Assembly (NCBI GenBank): GCA_963726245.1
Contig: CAVSBT010000030.1
Span: forward strand, 37,480 to 101,479
DNA: 64,000 bases
Reading direction: 5' to 3'
From: an uncultured Chloroflexia bacterium
GTDB lineage: Bacteria; Chloroflexota; Dehalococcoidia; DSTF01; JALHUB01
How positions within the stretch are numbered: the first letter of the stretch is position 1; every line of letters begins with the position of its first letter. Below, in pieces: positions 36,772 to 62,532 of this stretch. The notes under the pieces were generated by a model that was not told the DNA's origin, ran no database searches, and worked only from the letters and a program-made list of their open reading frames with translations. Position numbers and translations under genes: made by a program.

Positions 36772-36806
36772 GGGTCTGTTGGCAAACCCAAGTGGGCCGC
36801 TCCTGG

Positions 36807-36862
36807 TTCGACAGGCTCACCATGAGCGGATTCTGAGAACCGCTCGTCCTGAGCCTGTCGAA
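36807..36862. repeat. REP-like palindromic element / possible terminator after the kinase gene
   Basis: Arms ttcgacaggctcaccatgagcgg (36807-36829) and ccgctcgtcctgagcctgtcgaa (36840-36862) are reverse complements except for a 5-nt core. A half copy (cttcgacacgctcaggacgagcgg) recurs at 15022-15047. Confidence 0.6.
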
Positions 36863-36960
36863 GGGCGGGCGGCTGCTTCTTCAGCAGACCCTTAACTCCC
36901 CCGTCTTCACGCTCCGCCGCCTCTGGCGATGAGCGCCGGCAACCACGAGAGTCCCCAACT

Positions 36961-42781: not shown

Positions 42782-44096
42782 GAGGCCTTGGACTTGAGGA
42801 AGTATGTGTGGCAGACCTCGTCCAGCGACTCCGGCGTCACGACCGGCTGGCCACTCTCGCTGTACCGCGCCGAGTCGACGATTGCGTCGATGAGATCGCG
42901 GGGGTGGCAGCCGCGCAGCGCACGCTGCTGCGGCTCATACCACTGCTTGAAAAGGTAGTCGACCGCCTCGCCGCGGAACTCGATGCCTTGTTCCCCGCAG
43001 ACCCGCGCGAAGATGGCGCGGAACTCCTCTGGAGTGGGGTCCGGGATCTCCACGTTGTAGCGTATGCGCCGCCAGGAATGCCTCGTCCGCCAGGGCTTCC
43101 GGCGGCAGGTTGGTGGAGAAGAATGGAATGACGTCGAATGGCACTTCAATTGTCTGGCCCGTGTGCAGAGACAGGTGGTCGACACCACCCTCTAGCGCGA
43201 CGATCCAGCGGTTCAGTAGCTCCACCGCCGGTATCTGCTGCCTGCCGAAGTCGTCGATGATCAGGATGCCGCCGTTAGCCTTCATCTGCAGCGGCGCCTC
43301 GTAAACCTTCGACCGCTCGTCGAGCACGAGCTCCAGGCCCTGACGCGTCAGTTCGCCGCCCGTCAGCACAGCGGGGCGTCGCGCGATCGCCCAGCGACGG
43401 TCGTGTCTGCGCGTGTGTACGTCCCTTCCCTTCTCAGCGTAGTCCGCCAATTCGTGTTTCGACGGATCGAAGAGCCGGACGATGTGGCCGTACACCTCCA
43501 GTGCATAGGGAACGGCGATGTAGCCTGAAAGCGCCTGGCCCAGCAGGTGGGCGATTGTCGTCTTGCCGTTGCCGGAGGGCCCATAGATCAGTGTCGGCCG
43601 GCCTGAGAATATGGCCCGCCCGACGCGATTCCTGGTGTGTTCGCTGAGCACGAGCTGGGAGAGCGCCTTTGGGACGACCTCCGCGGTGAAGCCGCTACCG
43701 CCCGCAGACTGGAGTCGCACCTGGGCGATGTATTCTTTCAGAGGGACCGGTGCCTGCCCGATGTATGAGTTGCGCTCGAAGGCGACGCGCCGCGCGCTCC
43801 AACCCTCGACTGCTGAGCCGGTAGCGATAGCTGGCGGGTCCCTGGCCCTCGCCGGCGACGGTCTCGCAGAGGCCGTCGCCTGTGAGCAGCGCCAGTGCCT
43901 CCTGCATGACCGGTAGCGAGAGAGCCAGTGTGTCCGCAAGGTCGTCGGCCGTTGGTCGGGCGCTGTAGTAGAGCGCCTTCAGCGCCAGCTCGATGACGAA
44001 GGCGGCATCGAGCCCCGTGTCGCGCAGGTAGGCGGGCTCACGAGGGAGTTGCTCGTCCAGCTCCGCCGGCTCGACTGTTTGAGACGGGTAGCGCAT
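42778..44096 (-). CDS. AAA+ ATPase with N-terminal wHTH-like domain; two frame breaks (~43080, ~43795)
   Basis: Walker A GPSGNGKTT, Walker B GILIIDDFG, LNRWIVALEGG, FLRRIRYNVEIPDPTPEEF. Spread over ORFs 43695..44096, 42935..43939 and 42778..43188. Confidence 0.75.
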
Positions 44097-44098
44097 CT

Positions 44099-45709
44099 CT
44101 ATTCATGCCTTTCCGGAATCTCTTCCGCATTCGCCACGGCACCGTGCTCTGTCGTCAAGAAGTCGGGTGGAGTGTCCTGGGCTGCGACTGCCTCGAACCT
44201 CAACCGATACGGCCCGATCTCTATCTCGTCGCCGTCGTCGAGGCTGGCCCAGCTCACTCTCTGCCCGCAGAGGACCGTCGGGTGCATCGGGTCCAGCGAG
44301 CGAATGATGAAACGTTCGCCGGTGAACCAGATCTGCGCGTGAGCAGGTGCAACGTCATCCGCTTCCGTCTTCAGGCTGATGTCGCACTCGCGATCCGTCC
44401 CCAGTGTGACTGGTTCCTCGCCTAAAGCTAAGGCGTCCTGATCGCCGCCGGGACCGCGAACGACGAGCCGCCCCAGGCAAGGACGATCCCGTTCTGTCCC
44501 GTTCGCCTTTGCGGAAGACGGAGCTGTGTCGTGCAACAGACGGTCGTCAGGCAGCGGACCGGGCGGTTGCTTGAGCGGCCGGTTCCGTCGCAATCGCTCA
44601 CTGCCGCGCCATGCAGCCTTTATTGCCAGGGCCAAGCCTTTGCCGCCGGTCTTCGCCAGCCATAAGAGACCACGATAGCCCAGGCGCACCGCAACGACCG
44701 CGACCCGAGTTCCCCCCTCTGCAACGGCAACAATCGCTTTGAATGCCGGGGATGCCTCTCGCACCTGCCATCCGGGCCCTGCCGTTTGTTCCCTCGGCTG
44801 TCGCGCTTGGGGTTCGCCGGCCGGGCTCTCGAGGTGCACTTTCGTGGTCTTCTGGTCCCGCTTAGCTTCCGGCGCCGGTAGTACCTCTCGCACCTGCCAT
44901 CCGGGCCCTGCCGTTTGTTCCCTGGGCTGTCGCGCTTGGGGTTCGCCGGCCGGGCTCTCGAGGTGCACTTTCGTGGTCTTCTGGTCCCGCTTAGCTTCCG
45001 GCGCCGGTAGTACCTCTCGCACCTGCCATCCGGGCCCTGCCGTTTGTTCCCTGGGCTGTCGCACTTGGGGTTCGCCGGCCGGGCTCTCGAGGTGCACTTT
45101 CGTGGTCTTCTGGTCCGGCTTAGCTTCCGGCGCCGGTAATGCCTCGAGAGCAAGCGATGCCCGGCTGCGGGACTCGTCGTAAGCCGCGCGTCGCGAGCGA
45201 TCGAGGAGGACGGATCGTGCCTGCACCAACTCCTCGAGATAGTTCCCCTGGGGCTTGCCGATCGCTTCTTTCGAGTTGAGTGTCCGCAGTATCGAGTAGG
45301 CGCGGGCAATGAGCGGCGTCCCAGCCGCGGGGTCGACGCGCAGTAACTCGTAGTAGTCGACCGGCAAGCCCTGGCGCTTCTTGAACAGACTGAAAGGGAA
45401 AGAAGCCTTTTCCTGGAGCTGCGCTTTCCCGGCCCGTTCCCGCCGCAACTCCCGTACGCGGGGCACCGTCGCGCCTACGACGCGACGGTGCCCCGCGACG
45501 GCGAGGACCTGGTAGGCGGCGTTGAGGGCGGCCAGCTCACGCTCGGCGCTCCTCCTGACCGCCAGCTCGGCTCGCAGCCTGCTCGCGAGATACCAGTAGG
45601 CCTCCGCGACGAGTTCTTGAGGTGCGTCGGGGTCGACCTGGAGGAGGCGATAGTAGCCGCTGACTTCTCCGGAAGAGCCGTGTTCGTCAGCGCGTTCCTG
45701 AGCTTCCAT
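44099..45709 (-). CDS. J-like domain / tandem-repeat / FHA domain protein
   Basis: Two J-like helices lacking HPD (YYRLLQVDPDAPQELVAEAYWYL and DYYELLRVDPAAGTPLIARAYSIL). Three 43-aa repeats. C-terminal FHA pattern (LGTDRECDISL...VAPAHAQIWFTGERFIIRSL...NGTVLCGQRV-like). Confidence 0.75.
   Translation of the reverse strand: MEAQERADEHGSSGEVSGYYRLLQVDPDAPQELVAEAYWYLASRLRAELAVRRSAERELAALNAAYQVLAVAGHRRVVGATVPRVRELRRERAGKAQLQEKASFPFSLFKKRQGLPVDYYELLRVDPAAGTPLIARAYSILRTLNSKEAIGKPQGNYLEELVQARSVLLDRSRRAAYDESRSRASLALEALPAPEAKPDQKTTKVHLESPAGEPQVRQPREQTAGPGWQVREVLPAPEAKRDQKTTKVHLESPAGEPQARQPREQTAGPGWQVREVLPAPEAKRDQKTTKVHLESPAGEPQARQPREQTAGPGWQVREASPAFKAIVAVAEGGTRVAVVAVRLGYRGLLWLAKTGGKGLALAIKAAWRGSERLRRNRPLKQPPGPLPDDRLLHDTAPSSAKANGTERDRPCLGRLVVRGPGGDQDALALGEEPVTLGTDRECDISLKTEADDVAPAHAQIWFTGERFIIRSLDPMHPTVLCGQRVSWASLDDGDEIEIGPYRLRFEAVAAQDTPPDFLTTEHGAVANAEEIPERHE
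44754..45139. repeat. three near-identical 129-nt tandem repeats inside the FHA gene
   Basis: The marker gcacctgcca recurs at 44761, 44890 and 45019, giving a 129-nt period. Each copy encodes LPAPEAKxDQKTTKVHLESPAGEPQxRQPREQTAGPGWQVRE. Confidence 0.9.
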
Positions 45710-45722
45710 GGCACGGCCCCCG

Positions 45723-46634
45723 CTACCGGTTGAAGGCCTTTACCACCTCAATGGCGACCGGCCCGAGGATCACGATGAAAAAGGACGGGAGAATGAAGAA
45801 GATGAGTGGGAACACCATCTTGCCCGGAGTGCGCCGTGCCTGCTCTTCCGCATGCTGCCGCCGGCGGCGGCGCATGTCATTCGCCTGGGCCCGCAGGGCG
45901 GCGCCGAGACTCGTACCGAGCTCTTCGGCCTGAACGATGGTGTTGGCGAAGGACTGAAGGTCGGCCACACCCGTACGCTCCCCCATATCCACCAAGGCCT
46001 CACGGCGGGTCTTGCCCATCGTGACTTCTCTTAACATCTCGGCGAACTCGTCGGAAACGGGGCCGCCGAGCTTGTCCGACACCTTCTGGAAGGTGGAGTC
46101 GAGCCCCAGACCGGATTCGACGCAGGTCGTCATCAGGTCAAAGGCATCGGGCAGGCTGCGCCAGATGACCAGCCGACGCCGGCGGGCGCTACGTCGCAGC
46201 CAGAGGAAGGGCATCATCACGCCGAGGAGCGCGAATAGAGGCACGCCGACAACGGCCTTGCCTGAGACCAAGCCGCCGCCAGCTGCCCAGGCCAGAAGCA
46301 GAAAGGTGCAGGGCAGCAGCATCACCAAGGCCACGACCACCGCGAAGAAGGTGACTAGAGCCATCGGCTCCCCGGCCGCAATGAGGTTACGACGCGTCCG
46401 CGCGATGAACGCCGGCGGCAATGCGCCGATTATCGCGCTCGCGATCCCGTCGACGACTGGCAGCACCACCCGGTGCTCGAATGGGATCTCCCGGAGCGCC
46501 AGCGACTGCGCCTGCTGGTTCGCTAGAGTGCGCAGGCGTGCGTCGAGCTGCGCGTTCGCCTGCTGGAACCGCCAGACCGCGACCGACCCAACGGCGAGAA
46601 AGACGAAGACTGAACTGAGGACCGGCAAGACCAT
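45723..46634 (-). CDS. type II secretion system F family protein (TadC-like)
   Basis: 303 codons. N-terminal TM helix, central TM pair, T2SSF domain FDLMTTCVESGLGLDSTFQKV...EEQARRTPGKMVFPLIFFILPSFFIV. Confidence 0.8.
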   Translation of the reverse strand: MVLPVLSSVFVFLAVGSVAVWRFQQANAQLDARLRTLANQQAQSLALREIPFEHRVVLPVVDGIASAIIGALPPAFIARTRRNLIAAGEPMALVTFFAVVVALVMLLPCTFLLLAWAAGGGLVSGKAVVGVPLFALLGVMMPFLWLRRSARRRRLVIWRSLPDAFDLMTTCVESGLGLDSTFQKVSDKLGGPVSDEFAEMLREVTMGKTRREALVDMGERTGVADLQSFANTIVQAEELGTSLGAALRAQANDMRRRRRQHAEEQARRTPGKMVFPLIFFILPSFFIVILGPVAIEVVKAFNR

Positions 46635-46642
46635 CTCTCTAC

Positions 46643-46930
46643 CTATATCTCTATGGCAACGATGCGCCGTATCGTGAGGAAGCCGATCACCTGAAAGACG
46701 GCGGCGATCACCAACAGCACTATTCCAGCGGGCTCAGTCCACAGGTTGGACATGATATCCGGCGCGATCAAAAGGAAGAAGGCGCCCAACGCCACTGGCC
46801 ATAACGATAGTACCAAGGCGGTGAAACGATGCTGCGCTGTCAGCACCATTATCTCGCCGCGAATACGGTCGCGGTCGCGGATAGTCTCCGCCACTTTATC
46901 CAGGGTCTCGGAGAGGTTGCCACCGGTGCT
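46643..46930 (-). pseudogene. 3' fragment of a TadB-like T2SSF gene (N-terminal two thirds missing)
   Basis: STGGNLSETLDKVAETIRDRDRIRGEIMVLTAQHRFTALVLSLWP... is only the last ~95 codons of a T2SSF protein. Homology stops at about 46930, where a GH114 fragment begins. Confidence 0.7.
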
Positions 46931-48212
46931 GCGCTGTAGCCGTCGATGTTGTCGAACTCGACGCCGTCAAACCCCTTAGTGCGGCAGAGCTCGAGCCGCG
47001 CCCCGATGATCGGGCCAAGCACGTCCAGTTGCCTAATGTCGAGCCACCGCTCGCCCGGCCAGCCCTTGCTGTTTCCCAGGACCGACTGAGGGAAGTCGCC
47101 AGCATCAGGCCGCCAGTCCTCCCATGACCCCGCGCTGACGTGGCAGATCACCTTGCGCCCCTGGGCATGTAGGGTGGCGACGACGCTTGCGCTGTTGCCG
47201 AAGAGGTCGATGTCCCACATCTGGGCGTCGACAGAGGGATCCAGTTGACCGGTAAGCTGCCACTGCCAGGTAGTGGCCCGCGCGGGCCTCCAAACCGCCC
47301 CGGCGGTTGGCGTATTCGTAGGTGTCGGGGTGGCGGTGGCCGTTCGCGTTGCCGTGGGGGTGGGAGTCGCCGTGACGGTTGGACTGCGAGTAGCGGTTAC
47401 GGCGTTGGCAGGCGTGGGCGCAGCAGTCTCGGTGTAGCTAGGCGTCGGTGTGTTGGTCGGCATCTTCGTGGGCGTGGGCGCCGCCTTGAACGTGACGATC
47501 TGCCCCCGCCAGGTACCGGATACGGTAGTGGTGGCCGTGGTGGAGTAGGTGCCGGTTGCCGTCGCTATGCGGTCCGCGCCGGCGAAAGTACGTATGGAGG
47601 AGGTCCCAAACTGGAAATCGAACTGTTCATTGAAGGAGTTGGTCCAGCCGCTGAAACTGGTGGTGGCCCGGATGACCATCCCCACGATGAGGAGCTCGCT
47701 GGCCTGCGTGGTCGTCACGCTCCCTGAGGATGGGGAGCTACTGGTGCCCGTCGACGAGTTTGTCTGATCGAGCGGTGAGGAAGTGGTTATGCCGCTGTAC
47801 TCGTAGATCTGCAGTCCCAGCACGGACCTATTGTTCGACACGGTCACCGTGACCGTTCTGGACTCGGCGCTGCCGGCTATCTTTTAGAAGATGGCCTGCC
47901 CCGGCGTCCCGGTCTGGTTGATGGCGGTTGACCAGCCGGTGGGCGTGTTGATGGTGCTGGTAGTTACTTGCGCCGAGATGCGACCAGCAGGTCGCCGGCG
48001 ACCGGCGTGGCGTCGAAAGTGGCCGAGACGCTGGTAGTGAGGTTTCCTCCGCCGTATTCATTCTGGACGAGTGCGGGGTCCGGGGCCGCCGACACGGGGC
48101 GGTACCGCCCGGTCTGGATGTCGAGCACGGTGAGAGCCGTAGCCGCCATCGTCAAGAGGACGACAACAAGAGCGACTTGGAGAGTTCTAATCAGAGTCAA
48201 ATTGCCGGGCAC
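46931..48212 (-). pseudogene. truncated secreted GH114 (endo-alpha-1,4-polygalactosaminidase-like) gene with an unknown N-terminal module and PT linker; frame break ~47960, in-frame TAA 47884-47886, 3' half missing
   Basis: - Signal anchor LQVALVVVLLTMAATALTV.
- About 230 codons of unrecognised sequence.
- TPTPT linker.
- WQWQL...MWDIDLF...VICHVSAGSWEDWRPD...GFDGVEFDNIDGYS, then abrupt loss of similarity to the paralog at 61317..62532. Confidence 0.75.
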
Positions 48213-48270
48213 CCCTCCTCAGTGACAATCGCCTATTCGCACGCGGAGCACAAACTCCCCATAGCCCTCT

Positions 48271-49413
48271 TTATCCATCCCATTGACCCACAATCGAGGA
48301 AACACCAGCAGGGACGGCTGAAAGAGGGACTCCCTCATCAGGGCTGGGATCGCGACGCCAGGTCTCAGCGGGCCCTGGGGGTTCTCGCGTCGGAGGATTG
48401 TCTCGCGCGGTGGTACCGGCCGCCGACCGGATGATCTCCATTATTGCATTGGCGAGTCGGCCGGGATGGTGACGCAGTAGCGTGCCCGCGGAAGCAACCG
48501 GCCGCGCGACGACCTCGGGCACGAGGGCCCGGCACTCTTCCAAGTCGGTCTCGACTAGACGGGAGGCCTCTGATTCATATCGCAGCTTGAGGTTGTCCGG
48601 CACTGGAGAGCTGTTGACAAGCACGGTGTCTAGCGCACCAGAACCCAAGTACTGGGCGATGGTGCGCACAAAATCGGACGCCCTGAACCCGTCGGATTCT
48701 CCTCTCTTTGTGGCAAGGTTGCACACGAAGATCGTCTTCGCCGAGGAGCGGTCAATGGCTTCAGGCACACCCTCCACAACGAGATTCGCAATGACGCTAG
48801 TGTACAGGTCGCCCGGCCCGAGAATGACAACATCAGCCTCCGCTATGGCCTTTGCAGCCTCCGTGTTCACGTAGGCGCGTGGGTCCGTGTACACGTAGTC
48901 AATAGGCACTTCCGCCTTTTCCTCTCGCACATCCAGCCGGTCTTCACCTTTGAGGACGGTGCCGTCCACCAGGCGGGCGCACAGGTCGGCCTTTGTCAGA
49001 GTTACAGGAATCACGCGGCCCTTGATACCGAGGATCCGCCCCGCCTCTTGGATCGCCCTGTCGATGCCTCCTGTGATCTCCTCTAGCGCCGTGATAAACA
49101 GATTCCCAAAACTGTGGCCGTTTAGTCCTTCACCACGTGGGAACCGGTAGCTGAAGAGCTGGCGCAATAGGAGACTGGAGTGCTCTTCCGGCATAAGGGC
49201 CACCATGCACTGCCGCACGTCACCGGGGGGCAGATGACCAAACTCGTCGCGCAGCCTGCCGGAACTTCCTCCCCGATCAGTCATCGCCACGACAGCGGTC
49301 AGGTCAACGGCTTGTTCCTTCAGACCGGTTAAGATCGTGTGGGATCCCGTGCCGCCGCCCACAACCACGACTCTTGGTAGTCTCCCATCTTGAGTGCTGA
49401 CGTGGCCATTCAT
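48271..49413 (-). CDS. yvcK: YvcK/CofD-like (UPF0052, gluconeogenesis-factor family) protein
   Basis: RVVVVGGGTGSHTILTGLK...VVAMTDRGGSSGRLRDEFG.LPPGDVRQC...VILGPGDLYTSVI. Confidence 0.8.
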   Translation of the reverse strand: MNGHVSTQDGRLPRVVVVGGGTGSHTILTGLKEQAVDLTAVVAMTDRGGSSGRLRDEFGHLPPGDVRQCMVALMPEEHSSLLLRQLFSYRFPRGEGLNGHSFGNLFITALEEITGGIDRAIQEAGRILGIKGRVIPVTLTKADLCARLVDGTVLKGEDRLDVREEKAEVPIDYVYTDPRAYVNTEAAKAIAEADVVILGPGDLYTSVIANLVVEGVPEAIDRSSAKTIFVCNLATKRGESDGFRASDFVRTIAQYLGSGALDTVLVNSSPVPDNLKLRYESEASRLVETDLEECRALVPEVVARPVASAGTLLRHHPGRLANAIMEIIRSAAGTTARDNPPTREPPGPAETWRRDPSPDEGVPLSAVPAGVSSIVGQWDG

Positions 49414-49444
49414 GCCTGTCTCCTCCCTCAGCGAACGACGGATT

Positions 49445-50404
49445 CTAGCGGCGCAAGCCTACAGGGAGTATGCGCGACTCATCGTAATCGAAAAGCGTCT
49501 GAAGACCATCGCCCAGGCTATGGCGAGGCTGGAATCCGAGCACTACTCGGAGCTTCTCGATGTCAGCGCAGGACCGGTACGGATCACCGGGCCGCCGCTT
49601 GCCGAAGGAACAGCCAAAGGGAGAACCTGCGATGTCGCTCAAAGTCTGAGCGATCTGAAGGATCGAGGTCTCGACTCCAGTTCCCACATTGATGCATTGC
49701 CCGCGGGCCTCTTTCGCGGTTAAGGCCAGAAGATTCGCCTGAGCCACGTCTCGAACATACACGAAGTCCCGGGTCTGGCGGCCGTCTCCGAAGATCACGG
49801 GTTGCGCTCCGCGCCTGAAGGAATGCAGGAAGATGGAGATTACCCCGGAATAGGGGCTGCTGGGATCCTGTCGGGGCCCATAGACGTTAAAGTAGCGCAG
49901 AGAGACTGTCTCAAGCTGATAGAGGTCGTTGTAAGTCTGAGCGTACGCTTCGACGGCCAGCTTCTGTGCAGCGTAGGGTGAGGCGACGCGGGCAAGTATG
50001 GTCTCGCTGGTGGGCACCTCTGGCGCCGGGCCGTACACCGCTGCGGAACTCGCCAAGACAACGCGCTTGGCTCCCGTCTGGCGTGCCGCCTCCAAGACAT
50101 TCAGCGCGCCCGTCAGGTTCACTTCATGGGATTTGAGCGGAAGGCGAACTGAATCCAGAACCGATGCGACAGCGGCCAGGTGGAGGACTCCGTCGTAGCA
50201 CCCACTCTGCATCAGCGACATCAACAGGTCGCGATTGCGAATGTCCCCCTCCACGATGTGAATCCAGCGCTTCACCGAACGCAGGTTCTCAAGCCGTCCC
50301 GTAGCCAGATTGTCGAGCACAGAGACATCGTGCCCCTGTTCCAACAGGACCTCGACGCTGTGGGAACCTATGAAGCCTGCGCCACCGGTCACTAGCAACT
50401 TCAT
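49445..50404 (-). CDS. NAD-dependent UDP-hexose / UDP-HexNAc 4-epimerase
   Basis: ATG 50404 (MKLLVTGGAGFIGSH). SSAAVYG and YAAQK (YxxxK). 319 codons. Confidence 0.85.
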   Translation of the reverse strand: MKLLVTGGAGFIGSHSVEVLLEQGHDVSVLDNLATGRLENLRSVKRWIHIVEGDIRNRDLLMSLMQSGCYDGVLHLAAVASVLDSVRLPLKSHEVNLTGALNVLEAARQTGAKRVVLASSAAVYGPAPEVPTSETILARVASPYAAQKLAVEAYAQTYNDLYQLETVSLRYFNVYGPRQDPSSPYSGVISIFLHSFRRGAQPVIFGDGRQTRDFVYVRDVAQANLLALTAKEARGQCINVGTGVETSILQIAQTLSDIAGSPFGCSFGKRRPGDPYRSCADIEKLRVVLGFQPRHSLGDGLQTLFDYDESRILPVGLRR

Positions 50405-50500
50405 TGCTCTTCCCCACGAGGCCGAAAGGATACCCTTCCCTCGCACCGATATCGACTGGACCGATACTTCGCCACTGGCTGCCGTCTGCCCCCTATCCTC

Positions 50501-52297
50501 TCAGAATGACGCGTAACAGTAGTAAGCAGCGTCACGCAGAATGTGCCGCACGGCCAGCGAACTGGCTACGACGAGCGTGCCGCCTCCACAAACCAAACCT
50601 AGCACGGCGAACTCATAGCCGATGGCAACTGACAGGGCGCCGCCAGACACGAGGGCCACGGCCAGCGACGCCACGAGCCCCCTGACGGCCAACGATGGCT
50701 GGGACATGGCGACACAGAATCCACAGTTCAAGGCCCCGACAGCCAGCAAGCCATATCCCACCAGGCCCATCCTGAGAATGGACAAGTGGGTGGAATCGGT
50801 TGTCAGCTCCAGGTAGCGGTGGGACGTGAGCACGTCCAGGCCCACCAAGCCGAAATACACGCCGCCGCTAGCCGCCAGCAGGACCGCGATCAGCAGCATG
50901 TGGTGGCGCACCAGTTGGCGGCCGACCCGACGGCCCAGGGAACTGGCCTCGTACACCAACAGCGACCGCTGAAGAACCTTGATGCCTCGGAAATGCTGTC
51001 GGAGCGCGTGATCGGCCACTCCGCCAACCAAGATGTAGGGCACAATAGCGGCGGCCAGGAACATCCCCAACGCTGCCACCGCACCAGGCCGGTCGACGTT
51101 TGCCGGAAGGGAGCCAACCCACCCGGTGAGCAGGCTGGAGAAGGCCAGAACCATGAAGAGAAGCCCGTACAGGAAGTAGTGCCGGAGTGAGAAGCTCAAC
51201 CACCCTATCGCGGGAAGACGAAGTATCGAAGGGCGGCTTCCGGCCAACCGCACCTGCCGGCGGAATTCTAGCTCCGCCAACAGGATGGTGGTGGCGATGG
51301 CAGAGCCGAATCCCGTGACCGCCGATACCCGCAGGGCGACGTCCGCCGGGACCCCAAGCGCCGCAAGGAACCTCAAGCCCCCATAACCCACGACGGCTCC
51401 CACCCCGAGGCAGAGGAGGGTGTAGTGGCGCACTTCTAGGAGCGCCAATGCCGACAGCGCGAGCCAAAGCAGCGACAAGGAGAAGTAGATGCCCAGCGTG
51501 TCCAGCAACGAGAGCCAGGAGAGCCCAGCAAACCCTATGACTACGGGCGGAAGGACGAGAGCAACCCCCACCACCGCTAGCATGCAGAGGGCGCCCAGCC
51601 GGTAGCCGAGAGCGCGGGCCGCGGCATACTGGCCCTGGCTGACGAAGCTCCACCCTCTGCGCGAGAACGCCTGAACAAAGCCCGAGGTCGCCAACAGACT
51701 GAGCATGATGGCTATGCTAAGAGCAAAGACGCCCTTCGCCGAGGTCTCAGTCCCCTTGGCCAGGGCAGTTAGTACGAGGCCCCACATCAAGAGAGGAACG
51801 AAAGCTATCGGCCCCTGAATGTAGTCCTGAATCGCGTCTCGCAGGGCGCTCGTCAATCTGCGAGGTGTCCCGCCTCGACTGTCAGGCGCCGCCCCGTCAG
51901 CCCTTGTGGCGCAGTTCGCCAGGGCGGGCAGAGTTCTTTCCGCCAGCTCGAAGACATCGCGGCAGCCGTGATTCTGGGCGGCAGCACGGTCGTTTATGCC
52001 CTTAGACTCGAGGATGGCTGCGACCTCCAGGGCATAGACCGGCGTGAGAAGTCGCTCTTTGGCCAGCAGAGGGAGACTAGGCCGGACCGGCTGTCGTGGC
52101 GGCGGGTCCTTCGTCCCGGCCTCCGCCGCACCATTTCCATTGTTTCCCGGATTGCCAGCCCCCCCTCCGTTGCGTGGAGTCTTCACGAGCGCCACAGGCG
52201 GCGGTCGCCGGTCAAAGGCCAATCGATCCGAACCGACGAGGATCGCTTCCTCCCGGCCCTGTGTCTCAATCCGTTCCCGTTTGACAGCCCAGCTCAT
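50501..52297 (-). CDS. polytopic membrane protein, tentatively PelG-like polysaccharide export component; start uncertain (frame open upstream into the GT4 gene)
   Basis: Low-complexity N-terminal region, then about 12 hydrophobic helices (FVPLLMWGLVLTALA ... LGLVCGGGTLVVASSLAV). Directly follows the PelF-like gene. ATG 52297 is only one candidate start. Confidence 0.5.
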   Translation of the reverse strand: MSWAVKRERIETQGREEAILVGSDRLAFDRRPPPVALVKTPRNGGGAGNPGNNGNGAAEAGTKDPPPRQPVRPSLPLLAKERLLTPVYALEVAAILESKGINDRAAAQNHGCRDVFELAERTLPALANCATRADGAAPDSRGGTPRRLTSALRDAIQDYIQGPIAFVPLLMWGLVLTALAKGTETSAKGVFALSIAIMLSLLATSGFVQAFSRRGWSFVSQGQYAAARALGYRLGALCMLAVVGVALVLPPVVIGFAGLSWLSLLDTLGIYFSLSLLWLALSALALLEVRHYTLLCLGVGAVVGYGGLRFLAALGVPADVALRVSAVTGFGSAIATTILLAELEFRRQVRLAGSRPSILRLPAIGWLSFSLRHYFLYGLLFMVLAFSSLLTGWVGSLPANVDRPGAVAALGMFLAAAIVPYILVGGVADHALRQHFRGIKVLQRSLLVYEASSLGRRVGRQLVRHHMLLIAVLLAASGGVYFGLVGLDVLTSHRYLELTTDSTHLSILRMGLVGYGLLAVGALNCGFCVAMSQPSLAVRGLVASLAVALVSGGALSVAIGYEFAVLGLVCGGGTLVVASSLAVRHILRDAAYYCYASF

Positions 52298-54012
52298 CCA
52301 GAGGTGCCGCTCGCCGTTCCTCCCATCGCTTCCGTCGCCGTTTCTCCCATCGCTTCGCTCGCCGTTCCGTTGGGCTTCTGCCTCGGCCCCGACTGTCAGC
52401 GGGCTTGACCAGTGGCCGCCAGACTCGAGGACCCTCTCCACCTCCTCGGCATACCACTTCAATCTCAGTCGCACGTAGCACTGCAGGTAGCTCGAGGCAA
52501 AGCCCTTGGCCGAGAACTCGCAGGAGCGCGCGATGTCGGGCCCGCTTGCCGAGGAGGCGCCTTCGCTCTGGGTCGCGGAGCAGGTCGAGGCACGCGGTAG
52601 CCAGGGCTTGTGGGTTACCGGGCTCGACGACGGCGCCACAAGCGCCTATGGCCTCGGCCACTCCCCCCACATCGGTACCCACGACCGGCTTGCCGCACAT
52701 CATTGCCTCGATAACGGTGTAGGGAAACCCCTCGGACCGGCTGGAAAGCACGACGAGGTCACCTGCCCCGTAGGCCTCGGCGAGATTCTCCGCACGTCCG
52801 CGGAAGATGATGGCATCTTTCAGGCCCAAGTGATCCGACAGGGCAGAGACCTCTCTCCAGTACCCCTCGTTGCCCGCGGGCACAACACCATACATAAGCA
52901 AGCGCACAGACGGGTCGGACCGGCGGACCTCGGCCAGTGCCTGGAACAGAGTTGTAAGGTCTTTCAGGGGGTCAACACGGCCCACCCAGACCAGCGTGGG
53001 CGTCCGCGCTTCGGAAGGGAGCGGCTTGAACTTGTCCGGATCGACCCCGTTGTAAATCGTGCGCAGCTTCTGAGGTTCGGCACCCAGGGTCCGCTCCCAG
53101 CGCTGATTGAAGTCGCAGACCGGCGCAATCTCATCCGCGCATCGATAGCTAATCCTCGTTATTAGAATGTCCAAGCCGAGCCAGAAGCTCTTTAGGAAGG
53201 GCGATGGCGACACCTCCCGAAGGGCAAGGCATCGCTCTCTGATGTAGACCCCGTGCTCGGTCAGAAGCATAGGCACGCCATACACCAGCTTCGCCACAAC
53301 GCAGAGCACGGCGCTGATCCCTGTCACGGTGCCATGCACGACGTGAGCCGGCGGAATATCAATCGTCAAGACGGCAAGCAGACGGTACAGGAGGCGCACG
53401 GCTTCACTTACCTCGTCGAGGTTAGGCGCCTCGAGTCCGCGGCGGGACGTACCGACGGCGAGCGCTGCCTTGGCCGCCTGCCAAGTCACTGAATGCCTCA
53501 AGGTGGTGGAGTAGTCGTAACGGCGGAAATACCCGTGCAATGCCACCACCGCATCGAGGACGCAGGCCAAGTCGTCCGAGGGGCTCAAGAATCTCCTGAA
53601 GGAGAGTCTGAAATCGAGGCAAGAAGTGCCGGCGAATGACCGCCTCGCTCGTCTCGCGCTTTCGAGCAGCCAGCCGCCACACGCTGAGAGCACGATCCAG
53701 CTCCGACGGCTCATCGATGCCCCAGAGCGGTACAGTGATCACTCGTTCCACATTGGATGGGAGCCCGTATGCCTCCTTCACATAAGGGTTCGCGGTGACA
53801 GCCAGGAGCGTGAATCTGCTTTCAGGCAGACCTCTCAGTAGGAGGTCACACCAATTGGACACGCCGCCCGTCTCGTAGGGATACGTGCCCTCCGTGACCA
53901 ACAGGACGCTGAGGGGCTTCGAGGAGGTCGCTTCGGAGCCGCAGGCGCACGTCGCCTTAGGAGCCACCTTGTGGGAGCCTGTCAGCCGAGGCCCATCGTC
54001 GCGCGACGGCAT
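52298..54012 (-). CDS. pelF: PelF-like GT4 glycosyltransferase (DUF3492 + Glycos_transf_1); frame breaks ~53590 and 52541-52543; no stop codon found at the expected end
   Basis: ATG 54012 after GGAGGGG. LLVTEGTYPYETGGVSNW (DUF3492 signature), TEHGVYIRER, SRSEGFPYTVIEAMMCGKPVVGTDVGG. The tail EFSAKGFASSYLQCYVRL is in the frame of ORF 50501..52639. Confidence 0.75.
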
Positions 54013-60387: not shown

Positions 60388-60802
60388 GCTCCCTGAAGAC
60401 GATCGTCGAACACGACGTCTTTTGCCTTGTCGTGCGAACCTGCGACGTGGATCTCTGGAAGAAGTTCTCGGGATCCGTCGTGTCGCAGCCCGCCACGCCA
60501 ATCCACTCCGACGAGAGCTCGCTGCTTGAGAAGGAAGGACTGCGGGTGCCCGCCACCAGCAACCGAGACGCTCTTGTAAGGTCTATTAACATAATACGGC
60601 CGTTCTGTCAACTCGTCTGTTGGGTCGCAGGTAGAGTGTCCTAGTTACGTCGCAGCTAGGGTACTCTGAGCCCGCCGGCAAGTTTGTACCTGGGTGCCTG
60701 CGGGCATGACCGTCTGTTGCCCCGAACGGGAGCACGCGAGGCAGTATCTGAGAGCAAGGGCACCCTCCCGGCCGTCACACTGCAGAGAGAGAGGTGAGGG
60801 TT

Positions 60803-61241
60803 ATGGAGGTCGTGCACGAGCGCTGCTGTGGGCTCGACGTGCACAAGAAGACGGTGGTGGCCTGCCTGCTCACGCAGGGGCCGGGCGCGAGGTCCATCTG
60901 GGAGGTCCGCACCTTCGGCACCACCCAGGAGTTGCTGGCGCTCAGGGACCGGTTAGGCGCGGCCGGATGTAGCCACGTGGCAATGGAGAGCACTGGCTCG
61001 TATTGGAAGCCCGTGTACAACATCCTCGAGGGCGCCTTCGACCTGTTGGTGGTGAACGCCCAGCACCTGAAGGCCGTGCCTGGGCGCAAAACGGACGTGG
61101 GCGACGCCGAGTGGATTCCCCGATCTGCTGCGCCATGGCCTGCTCCGTCCCAGCTTCATCCCCTCCCGGCCGGAGCGCGAACTGCGTGAGTTCAGCCGCT
61201 ACCGCACCGCCCTGATCCGGGAACGAACTGCTGATATCAAC
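60803..61241 (+). mobile_element. IS110-family transposase remnant (N-terminal DEDD domain only; frame break in CCCC run 61118-61121; C-terminal half absent)
   Basis: MEVVHERCCGLDVHKKTVVACLL...VAMESTGSYWKPVYN...VVNAQHLKAVPGRKTDVGDAEWI, then (+1 frame) DLLRHGLLRPSFIPSRPERELREFSRYRTALIRERT. Similarity ends at about 61241. Confidence 0.8.
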
Positions 61242-61316
61242 TCAGTGGCCACGACAAGTGCGATCCCGGCAGGTCCTCGCGCTGGTCGTGCCTGGTAGCG
61301 ACATGCGCCAGTCGAA

Positions 61317-62532
61317 TTGACTATTATGGTAATATGTGGCGGAGGTTTGCAGAAAGTGACCTCGGCACGGGCTGTCTTCCATGTTCAGATGATCTCACTG
61401 GTGGCAGGGCTCCTGATCCTCGGAACGCTGGTCATGGGCAATACGTGTGATCCGGCGCCGGCGGCTCCAATGCCGACAGGTACGCGCACGACCGTAGCAA
61501 TCGCTAGCAATCGTCTAGCCGCCGCGGCGACTTCTACCCGCACGCCAACGCGAACGCGGACTCCCACCCGCACGCCAACGCGAACGGCCACCGCCACCGC
61601 AACGCCGACGCCCACGGCTACAGGAACCGCCGGCGGGGTTTGGAGGCCCGCGCAGGCCACCACCTGGCAGTGGCAGCTTACCAGCGACCTTGATCTCTCT
61701 GTCGATGCCGCAGATGTGGGACATCGACCTCTTCGACAACAGCGCAAGCGTCGTCGCCACCCTACATGGCCAGGGGCGCAAGGTGATCTGCTACATGAGC
61801 GCCGGGTCATGGGAGGACTGGCGACCCGATTCCAGCGACTTCCCTGAATCAGTCTTGGGCAACTACCTTGAGGGCTACGACGACGAGCGGTGGCTCGACA
61901 TTAGGCAACTGGACGTGCTCGGCCCGATCATGGGAGCGCGGCTCGACCTCTGCCGCGATAAGGGCTTCGACGGCGTCGAGTTCGACAACATAGACGGCTA
62001 TAGCAACAGCACTGGCTTCCCGCTGCGTGCGGCCGATCAGGTCGCCTACAACACGTGGCTTGCGAACGCCGCCCATGAACGGGGCCTGTCGGCGGGGTTC
62101 AAGAACGACCTCGACCAGGTCACTGATCTCGAGCCGTCCTTTGACTTTGCCATAGTAGAGGAATGCTTCCAGTACGATGAGTGTGATTTGGCCCTCCCCT
62201 TCATCGAGGCAGGCAAGGCTGTGTTTGAGGTCGAGTACAGCGGAACCCTCGAGAGCTTCTGCCCTCAGGCGAACGCTATGGGCTTCATGTCGATGAAGAA
62301 GCATCAGAGCCTGGACGCCTGGCGCCAGCCCTGCACCTCATCCACCGAATCTACCGTTGGCGGCGTCGCAGAGCTTCCAGACCTTGCTGGAGCCTCGGTA
62401 GGGGAGGCGGGTGCGCCTGCCGAGGGCGCTGGTTGGTCGGCTGGCGCCTACGCCGCCCTCGGTGGCGCATCGGCGGCAGTTGTAGTCTGCATCACCTCCG
62501 CCTGGTACGCCAGAAGGCGGTGGCTCAGTTAG
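61317..62532 (+). CDS. secreted/anchored GH114 (endo-alpha-1,4-polygalactosaminidase-like) hydrolase with TRTP linker and C-terminal TM anchor; 1-nt insertion ~61705
   Basis: WQWQLTSDLDLSVDA | MWDIDLFDNSA...VICYMSAGSWEDWRPD...ERWLDIRQ...GFDGVEFDNIDGYSN...GLSAGFKND...AIVEECFQYDEC. The paralog at 47.2 kb reads gtcgacgcccagatgtgg where this copy has gtcgatgccgcagatgtgg. The tail AAVVVCITSAWYARRRW is hydrophobic then basic. Confidence 0.8.

Follow-up and report, generated by a model that had tools for sequence, protein, structure and literature searches.

A GH114 gene half joined to a tadB remnant: a probable deletion scar between a Tad remnant and an EPS locus in an uncultured Chloroflexota genome

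Canonical Tad/Flp loci are organised as tadZ-tadA-tadB-tadC, with TadB and TadC as the T2SSF platform proteins. Endo-alpha-1,4-polygalactosaminidases of the GH114 family, such as the hydrolase domain of PelA and Ega3, are found in loci of the Pel/GAG type. As for the loss of genes, the short-homology deletions of Salmonella Typhimurium LT2 join same-strand segments at a short direct repeat with loss of the intervening DNA, and those confirmed experimentally have endpoints with direct microhomology of 8 bp or more (PMC3411829). The locus described here resembles each of these systems in part: a Tad locus that is intact in relatives of the same family is represented by a remnant that, in contrast to the canonical loci, lacks tadE, tadG, cpaB, tadZ, tadA and 70% of tadB, and what is left of tadB is joined to half of a GH114 gene.

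The window, that is, the whole stretch of 64,000 nucleotides that was analysed, corresponds to contig C30:37480-101479 of a 2.68-Mb MAG in 46 contigs, with a completeness of 82.8% and a contamination of 6.3%. Relatives of this MAG are uncultured Chloroflexota labelled Chloroflexia or Dehalococcoidia, and ten relatives from the same family were included in the orthologue comparison. The relative G009 is a complete genome (OY969814.1) from a genus different from that of the MAG, and G001 represents the MAG's own genus. The features of the locus, including the surviving part of the second Tad locus of this family (tad-2), are as follows, in window coordinates.

42796..44096, minus strand: tad-2 gene for an AAA+-like protein, which has 435 aa in G009 (tblastn, three segments in three frames)
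44099..45709, minus strand: tad-2 gene with J and FHA domains, longer than in G009 at 536 aa compared to 441 aa (Pfam DnaJ and FHA; G009 orthologue)
45723..46634, minus strand: tadC, intact, 303 aa, now orphaned (Pfam T2SSF; 82-85% full-length identity to TadC of G009 and G015)
46643..46932, minus strand: tadB', remnant of a TadB-type (T2SSF) platform gene, codons ~226-321 plus stop (Pfam, identity, nucleotide alignment)
46933..46936, minus strand: putative crossover, CAGC common to the GH114 and tadB sides (junction aligned with G015 tadB, G009 tadB and the GH114 paralog)
46933..48212, minus strand: GH114-A, 5' remnant of a secreted multi-domain gene (Pfam; similarity to the paralog ends at 46933)
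47884..47886, minus strand: in-frame TAA in the X module of GH114-A (AIF*K, against AIFYK in G009 and G015)
47979..47980, minus strand: shift of the reading frame by one base within the X module (LLVA continues as ISAQVTT in a different frame)
48271..53714, minus strand: core of a Pel/GAG-like EPS operon upstream of the junction, with GT4/PelF-like, 712-aa polytopic, epimerase and CofD-like proteins (Pfam)

The GH114-A remnant begins with a membrane anchor at the N-terminus. This is followed by an 'X' module, unnamed and about 180 aa long, a Pro/Thr linker and, as far as ...FDNIDGYS, the first half of a GH114 domain. The minus-strand ORF at 46849-47847 matches Pfam PF03537 (GH114) only over profile positions 1-119 of 231 (E 5e-45), such that a complete (beta/alpha)8 domain is absent; the GH114-like part of this ORF closes with ...GFDGVEFDNIDGYS, followed by 28 codons out of frame. 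According to the repeat finder, the arm of the inverted GH114 paralog stops exactly at 46933 (pair I2: 46933-47066 vs 61871-62004, 88%), which is about where the preliminary description, made from the sequence of the window, had placed the end of the match; its statement that the C-terminal half of the domain is missing holds as well. Similarly to the GH114 genes of Pel/GAG-type loci, GH114-A matches PF03537 with its N-terminal half and adjoins PelF-like, Agd3-like and epimerase genes; unlike those of PelA and Ega3, its barrel is incomplete, and two fuller paralogs, B and C, are located nearby. GH114-A is 14-17% diverged from these paralogs (83-86% identical), and GH114-B carries a frameshift.

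The X module (47500-48100, minus strand) shares 69% protein and 79% nucleotide identity with part of a 721-aa protein of G009 (G009:C1:1366115-1366720), in which a pilin-like N-terminus and a Pro/Thr linker accompany it. The module is widespread in the family, with further occurrences on G006:C70, G002:C1 and G014:C7, and often comes in two to four tandem copies. The one-base frame change at 47979..47980 may be an assembly error, as may the in-frame TAA at 47884..47886, given the error rate of the assembly; the 82-aa N-terminal ORF, looked up as a check on this frameshift, has no record in the Logan data by exact look-up. A 476-aa GH114 homologue that is 79% identical to the GH114-A half is encoded on another metagenomic contig (ENA ERZ27247725 k141_1003696), at the end of an array that includes an HNH_3 gene, a gene whose product has 1138 aa and numerous small ORFs that lack a Pfam match; this array may be phage-derived, in which case its GH114 homologue may be a phage depolymerase.

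On the other side of the junction, tadB' lies in a frame different from that of the GH114 remnant and, past the junction and in another frame, encodes STGGNLSETLDKVAETIRDR... The segment 46643-46945 covers positions 72-124 of 125 of Pfam T2SSF, and the product aligns with residues 227-321 of the 321-aa G009 TadB at 78% identity, in agreement with the earlier statement that the N-terminal two thirds are lost; at the nucleotide level, the similarity to tad-2 of both G009 and G015 halts at 46936 (BLAST). The preliminary description was also right, as far as this locus is concerned, about the lack of tadA, pilin and secretin genes further on, and did not mention either the intact tadC directly downstream or a separate, complete Tad locus on contig C25 of the MAG.

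Two observations concern the genes beyond tadC. The J-domain/FHA gene contains, at 44745-45145 on the minus strand, three 129-nt tandem repeats (family D4) that are mutually 94-100% identical and are absent from the G009 orthologue. Single extra bases at 43788 and 43073 distribute the AAA+-like gene over three frames, and the block between these two positions shows 92% nucleotide identity to G009, with 100% over 100 nt, compared to 76-79% in the flanks; this block could reflect mosaic recombination, an artefact of consensus polishing or unusually strong conservation.

A second Tad locus is present in nine relatives of the family, with TadC proteins 61-85% identical to that of the window. In G009, the order of tad-2 is tadE, tadG, cpaB, tadZ (REC and ParA-like), tadA, tadB, tadC, the J-domain/FHA gene and the 435-aa AAA+-like gene, and judging by ORF sizes, a short contig of G015 has the same order from tadZ onward. 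The window retains only tadB', tadC, the J/FHA gene and the AAA+ gene of this series. Comparison with relatives that keep the locus, which the preliminary description had proposed, thus confirms the truncation. Searches of the 46 contigs with the G009 proteins (tblastn; the MAG is 83% complete) detected no tad-2-type tadE, tadG, cpaB, tadZ or tadA; the only matches to tadE through tadA belong to the Tad locus on C25, at 34-62% identity. Nor was an orphan GH114 C-terminal half found on the same 46 contigs of this 83% complete MAG. A functional Tad pilus calls for the TadA ATPase together with TadB and TadC in the locus; here, there is no tad-2-type tadA in the MAG and tadB is truncated, so this copy of tad-2 is predicted to be unable to assemble a pilus. 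From the G009 coordinates and the missing half of GH114, the loss would amount to at least ~6.5 kb.

Gene order in the relatives gives no direct picture of the arrangement prior to the junction. The genes upstream of tad-2 in G009 show no synteny with the MAG, G001 from the same genus has neither tad-2 nor the EPS genes, and an EPS array adjoining tad-2 was found in no relative; the closest GH114 homologues (P0002 and P0005) occur in unrelated contexts.

At the junction itself, the similarities to the two sides overlap by 4 nt, CAGC at 46936-46933. The strings quoted in the preliminary description for paralog B (TATAGCAACAGCACTGGC) and for the junction (TACAGCGCAGCACCGGTGGC) are correct; at the equivalent point, GH114 copy C reads GGCTATAGCAACAGCACCGGCTTT and tadB of both G009 and G015 reads ATCCAGCGCAGCACCGGCGGCAAC, and the corresponding sequence of the junction is GGCTACAGCGCAGCACCGGTGGCAAC. 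Copy C and the G009/G015 tadB thus have CAGC in common and, after 1-2 bases that do not match, the exact 10-mer CAGCACCGGC, which includes the CAGCACCGG that follows the crossover at 46931-46923; the two parents are represented here by stand-ins, namely GH114 paralogs that are 83-86% identical to GH114-A and tadB orthologues from another genus, the true parents being unavailable. When a GH114 gene is compared with the tad-2 segment of 6.5 kb, such stand-in sequences have exact 10-mers in common at 2.8e-6 per position pair; a 10-mer of this kind directly beside a randomly placed junction would be very improbable. Because the junction reads AGC-G-CAGCACC instead of AGC-AA-CAGCACC, the crossover is best placed within CAGC, just 5' of the 10-mer patch and not inside it. 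Of the earlier claim of about 10 nt of microhomology, then, the shared sequence itself stands, as an exact 10-mer plus CAGC, and the position of the exchange has to be moved out of the 10-mer.

Neither an IS-mediated adjacent deletion nor an integrase/att-mediated island insertion is indicated at the junction. There is no IS end or transposase at 46.6-47.0 kb, the nearest being an IS110 remnant at 60794-61290; no tRNA was found in 30000-64000, no direct repeat flanking the EPS side was reported by the repeat finder, and no integrase ORF adjoins the junction. A promoter/terminator scan yielded nothing that exceeded the shuffled background. Both remnants are on the minus strand, with GH114-A upstream of tadB'-tadC, and are therefore collinear, as a simple deletion requires.

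We consider it probable that the junction is a genuine chromosomal scar left by a deletion in place. The truncation of both remnants relative to intact homologues, together with the microhomology, supports the interpretation as illegitimate recombination or deletion that had been put forward in the preliminary description. Under the deletion model, the ancestor would have carried a Pel/GAG-like EPS array that ended in a gene for a secreted X-linker-GH114 protein, and this gene would have been located upstream of tad-2 on the same strand; tad-2 itself would have had the order tadE-tadG-cpaB-tadZ-tadA-tadB-tadC-J/FHA-AAA+, this pre-deletion order being hypothetical. A RecA-independent short-homology event would then have joined GH114 codon ~305 to tadB codon ~225 at the imperfect 15-16-nt patch CAGC[AA/G]CAGCACCGG, either by replication slippage or by microhomology-mediated end joining, the two pathways being equally possible. 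End joining is plausible in this lineage because the genome encodes a Ku homologue (G000:C3:24324-24869; PF02735, 180 bits). The loss would have comprised the 3' half of GH114, tadE through tadA and the first two thirds of tadB, at least ~6.5 kb, leaving the tad-2 pilus dead and tadC, the J/FHA gene and the AAA+ gene as orphans. Such an event would be of the same kind as the LT2 deletions, in that same-strand segments are joined at a short direct repeat with the intervening DNA lost, and, as in spontaneous bacterial short-homology deletions generally, the gene at either end is left truncated and out of frame. It differs from the LT2 cases in that the repeat is imperfect (CAGC, 1-2 nt and CAGCACCGG) and known from stand-in parents only, and in that an environmental population would carry the deletion in fixed or dominant form as opposed to a rare variant.

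The EPS side of the junction raises the question of its origin. No orthologue of GH114 or of the CofD gene of the EPS locus was detected in the 10 family relatives including the same-genus G001, and none of the EPS genes, the PelF-like, PelG-like, epimerase and Agd3-like ones included, has a DNA-level match in 8 of these relatives; the junction can indeed be described, as before, as the border between the Tad remnant and the EPS locus. Separately, an IS110-family transposase gene extends from 60794 to ~61290 on the plus strand and breaks off near residue 170, immediately ahead of GH114 copy B. Contig C44 has a related copy, which is 68-86% identical over the first ~108 residues. Elsewhere in the window, a stretch of ~100 nt at 36773-36893, in which ARAGORN predicts no tRNA, matches at least 15 contigs of G001 at 84-92% and looks like a dispersed short repeat.

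The limited distribution of GH114 and the EPS genes would fit an alternative that we regard as unlikely, namely that the junction dates from the arrival of the EPS DNA as foreign DNA, one end of which would have joined at CAGC/CAGCACCGG within tadB by homology-facilitated illegitimate recombination and replaced the 5' part of tad-2. Besides the absence of GH114 and CofD orthologues and of DNA matches to the other EPS genes, the slightly lower GC content of the EPS side (0.626-0.637, compared to the genome mean of 0.667) and the truncated IS110 transposase at the other edge of the EPS core are compatible with acquisition. However, the GC deviation is only ~1-1.5 SD, and composition was rejected as evidence of horizontal transfer on this ground; the X module that GH114-A carries is native to the family, as its nucleotide identity to G009 indicates; the 14-17% divergence of GH114-A from copies B and C marks it as an old paralog, which argues against a fresh import of the truncated copy; and a second illegitimate junction was not identified.

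A larger rearrangement, by inversion or translocation, with the reciprocal halves surviving in the ~17% of the genome that lies outside the MAG, appears more doubtful still. The incompleteness of the MAG (82.8% complete) leaves room for it, and inverted GH114 repeats abound in the region, which also contains an IS remnant, but tad-2-type tadA, tadZ and cpaB and an extra GH114 C-terminal half are all absent from the 46 contigs, and a simple deletion explains the same-strand remnants without further steps.

The deletion reading presupposes that the join exists in the organism, and here an independent assembly is informative. Contig ERR10755944_660875, which was retrieved by exact-protein look-up from the Logan assembly of run ERR10755944 (k=31, made independently of the MAG), is 1739 nt long and corresponds to 46968-45230 of the window with two mismatches and 0 gaps. 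It opens with 35 nt of GH114 (GACGGCGTCGAGTTCGACAACATCGACGGCTACAGC) and continues into tadB' and tadC; at the far end, it stops just short of the 129-nt repeats of the J/FHA gene. Its first base coincides with the first base of a 32-nt stretch common to GH114-A and copy C, and the contig ends there because a k=31 graph must branch at such a shared stretch, and an abundant alternative allele that branches at the junction itself therefore seems to be absent. Run ERR10755944 contains both sides of the junction, since another of its Logan contigs matches 48118-52220 at 100% identity. Logan drops k-mers seen only once, and hence at least two reads carry the junction. The support from this k-mer assembly means that the join was not made by the MAG assembler, and an assembly chimera, already held to be the less likely explanation in the preliminary description, is largely excluded. 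An exact search for the junction 39-mer in JGI metagenome contigs gave 0 matches.

The MAG does contain numerous errors of another type. A hidden Markov model of GC3 periodicity identified ~590 same-strand frame changes without a nearby stop across the MAG, or 2.2 per 10 kb; the five that were inspected (C25:43001, 34321, 86139, 60509 and 101566) fall within pheT, topA, ftsY, thrS and a metE-like gene, and because some of these are essential genes, the frame changes without stop are assembly indel errors. Given this background, frameshifts near the junction are no proof of pseudogene decay, and the inference of long-term decay from them was rejected; claims of pseudogenes in this MAG that are based on frameshifts require read support. 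The truncation at 46933 is a lesion of a different kind from the single-base indels and has independent support. A chimeric contig or chimeric library molecule is very improbable: an error-prone MAG with 6.3% contamination would allow for one, but the identical junction is present in a differently made assembly, assemblers join at repeats of at least k bases and not at 4-10 nt, a 10-mer of microhomology is unexpected for ligation chimeras (PMC3411829), and both flanks are similarly diverged from the other genera of the family.

With the deletion retained as the preferred explanation, the remnants provide some indication of its age. The amino acid difference from G009 is 22% for tadB' (14% between G015 and G009) and 18% for TadC (12% between G015 and G009), and the GC and GC3 of tadB' are the same as in the G009 orthologue. 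Relaxed selection in tadB' was considered and rejected, given that GC, GC3 and the ratio of amino acid divergence to that of tadC all show no difference. Because tadB' has diverged no faster than the intact tadC, there is no sign of long neutral decay, and the deletion looks recent. Both remnants are nevertheless predicted to be non-functional, because the domain boundaries leave half of a GH114 (TIM) barrel and less than half of a T2SSF domain, neither of which would be expected to fold or function.

The genes now form one same-strand array that starts with the PelF-like gene (53714) and ends with the AAA+ gene. It is conceivable, albeit highly doubtful, that the deletion went beyond decay and fused the EPS operon directly to tadC-J/FHA-AAA+, so that a former pilus-associated FHA/AAA+ signalling module would now be under EPS-operon transcription, marking a switch from pilus to polysaccharide attachment in this lineage.

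The type of event is already well known and opens no long-standing question, and the value of the case lies mainly in annotation and quality control. The region at 46.6-48.2 kb should be annotated as two pseudogene remnants and not as a novel fusion protein, and the locus shows that a real structural lesion can be separated from the many single-base assembly errors of a MAG. For the organism, the junction would mean that its second Tad locus is dead, and for the lineage, an uncultured group of Chloroflexota that encodes Ku, it would provide a clean natural example of a short-homology deletion.
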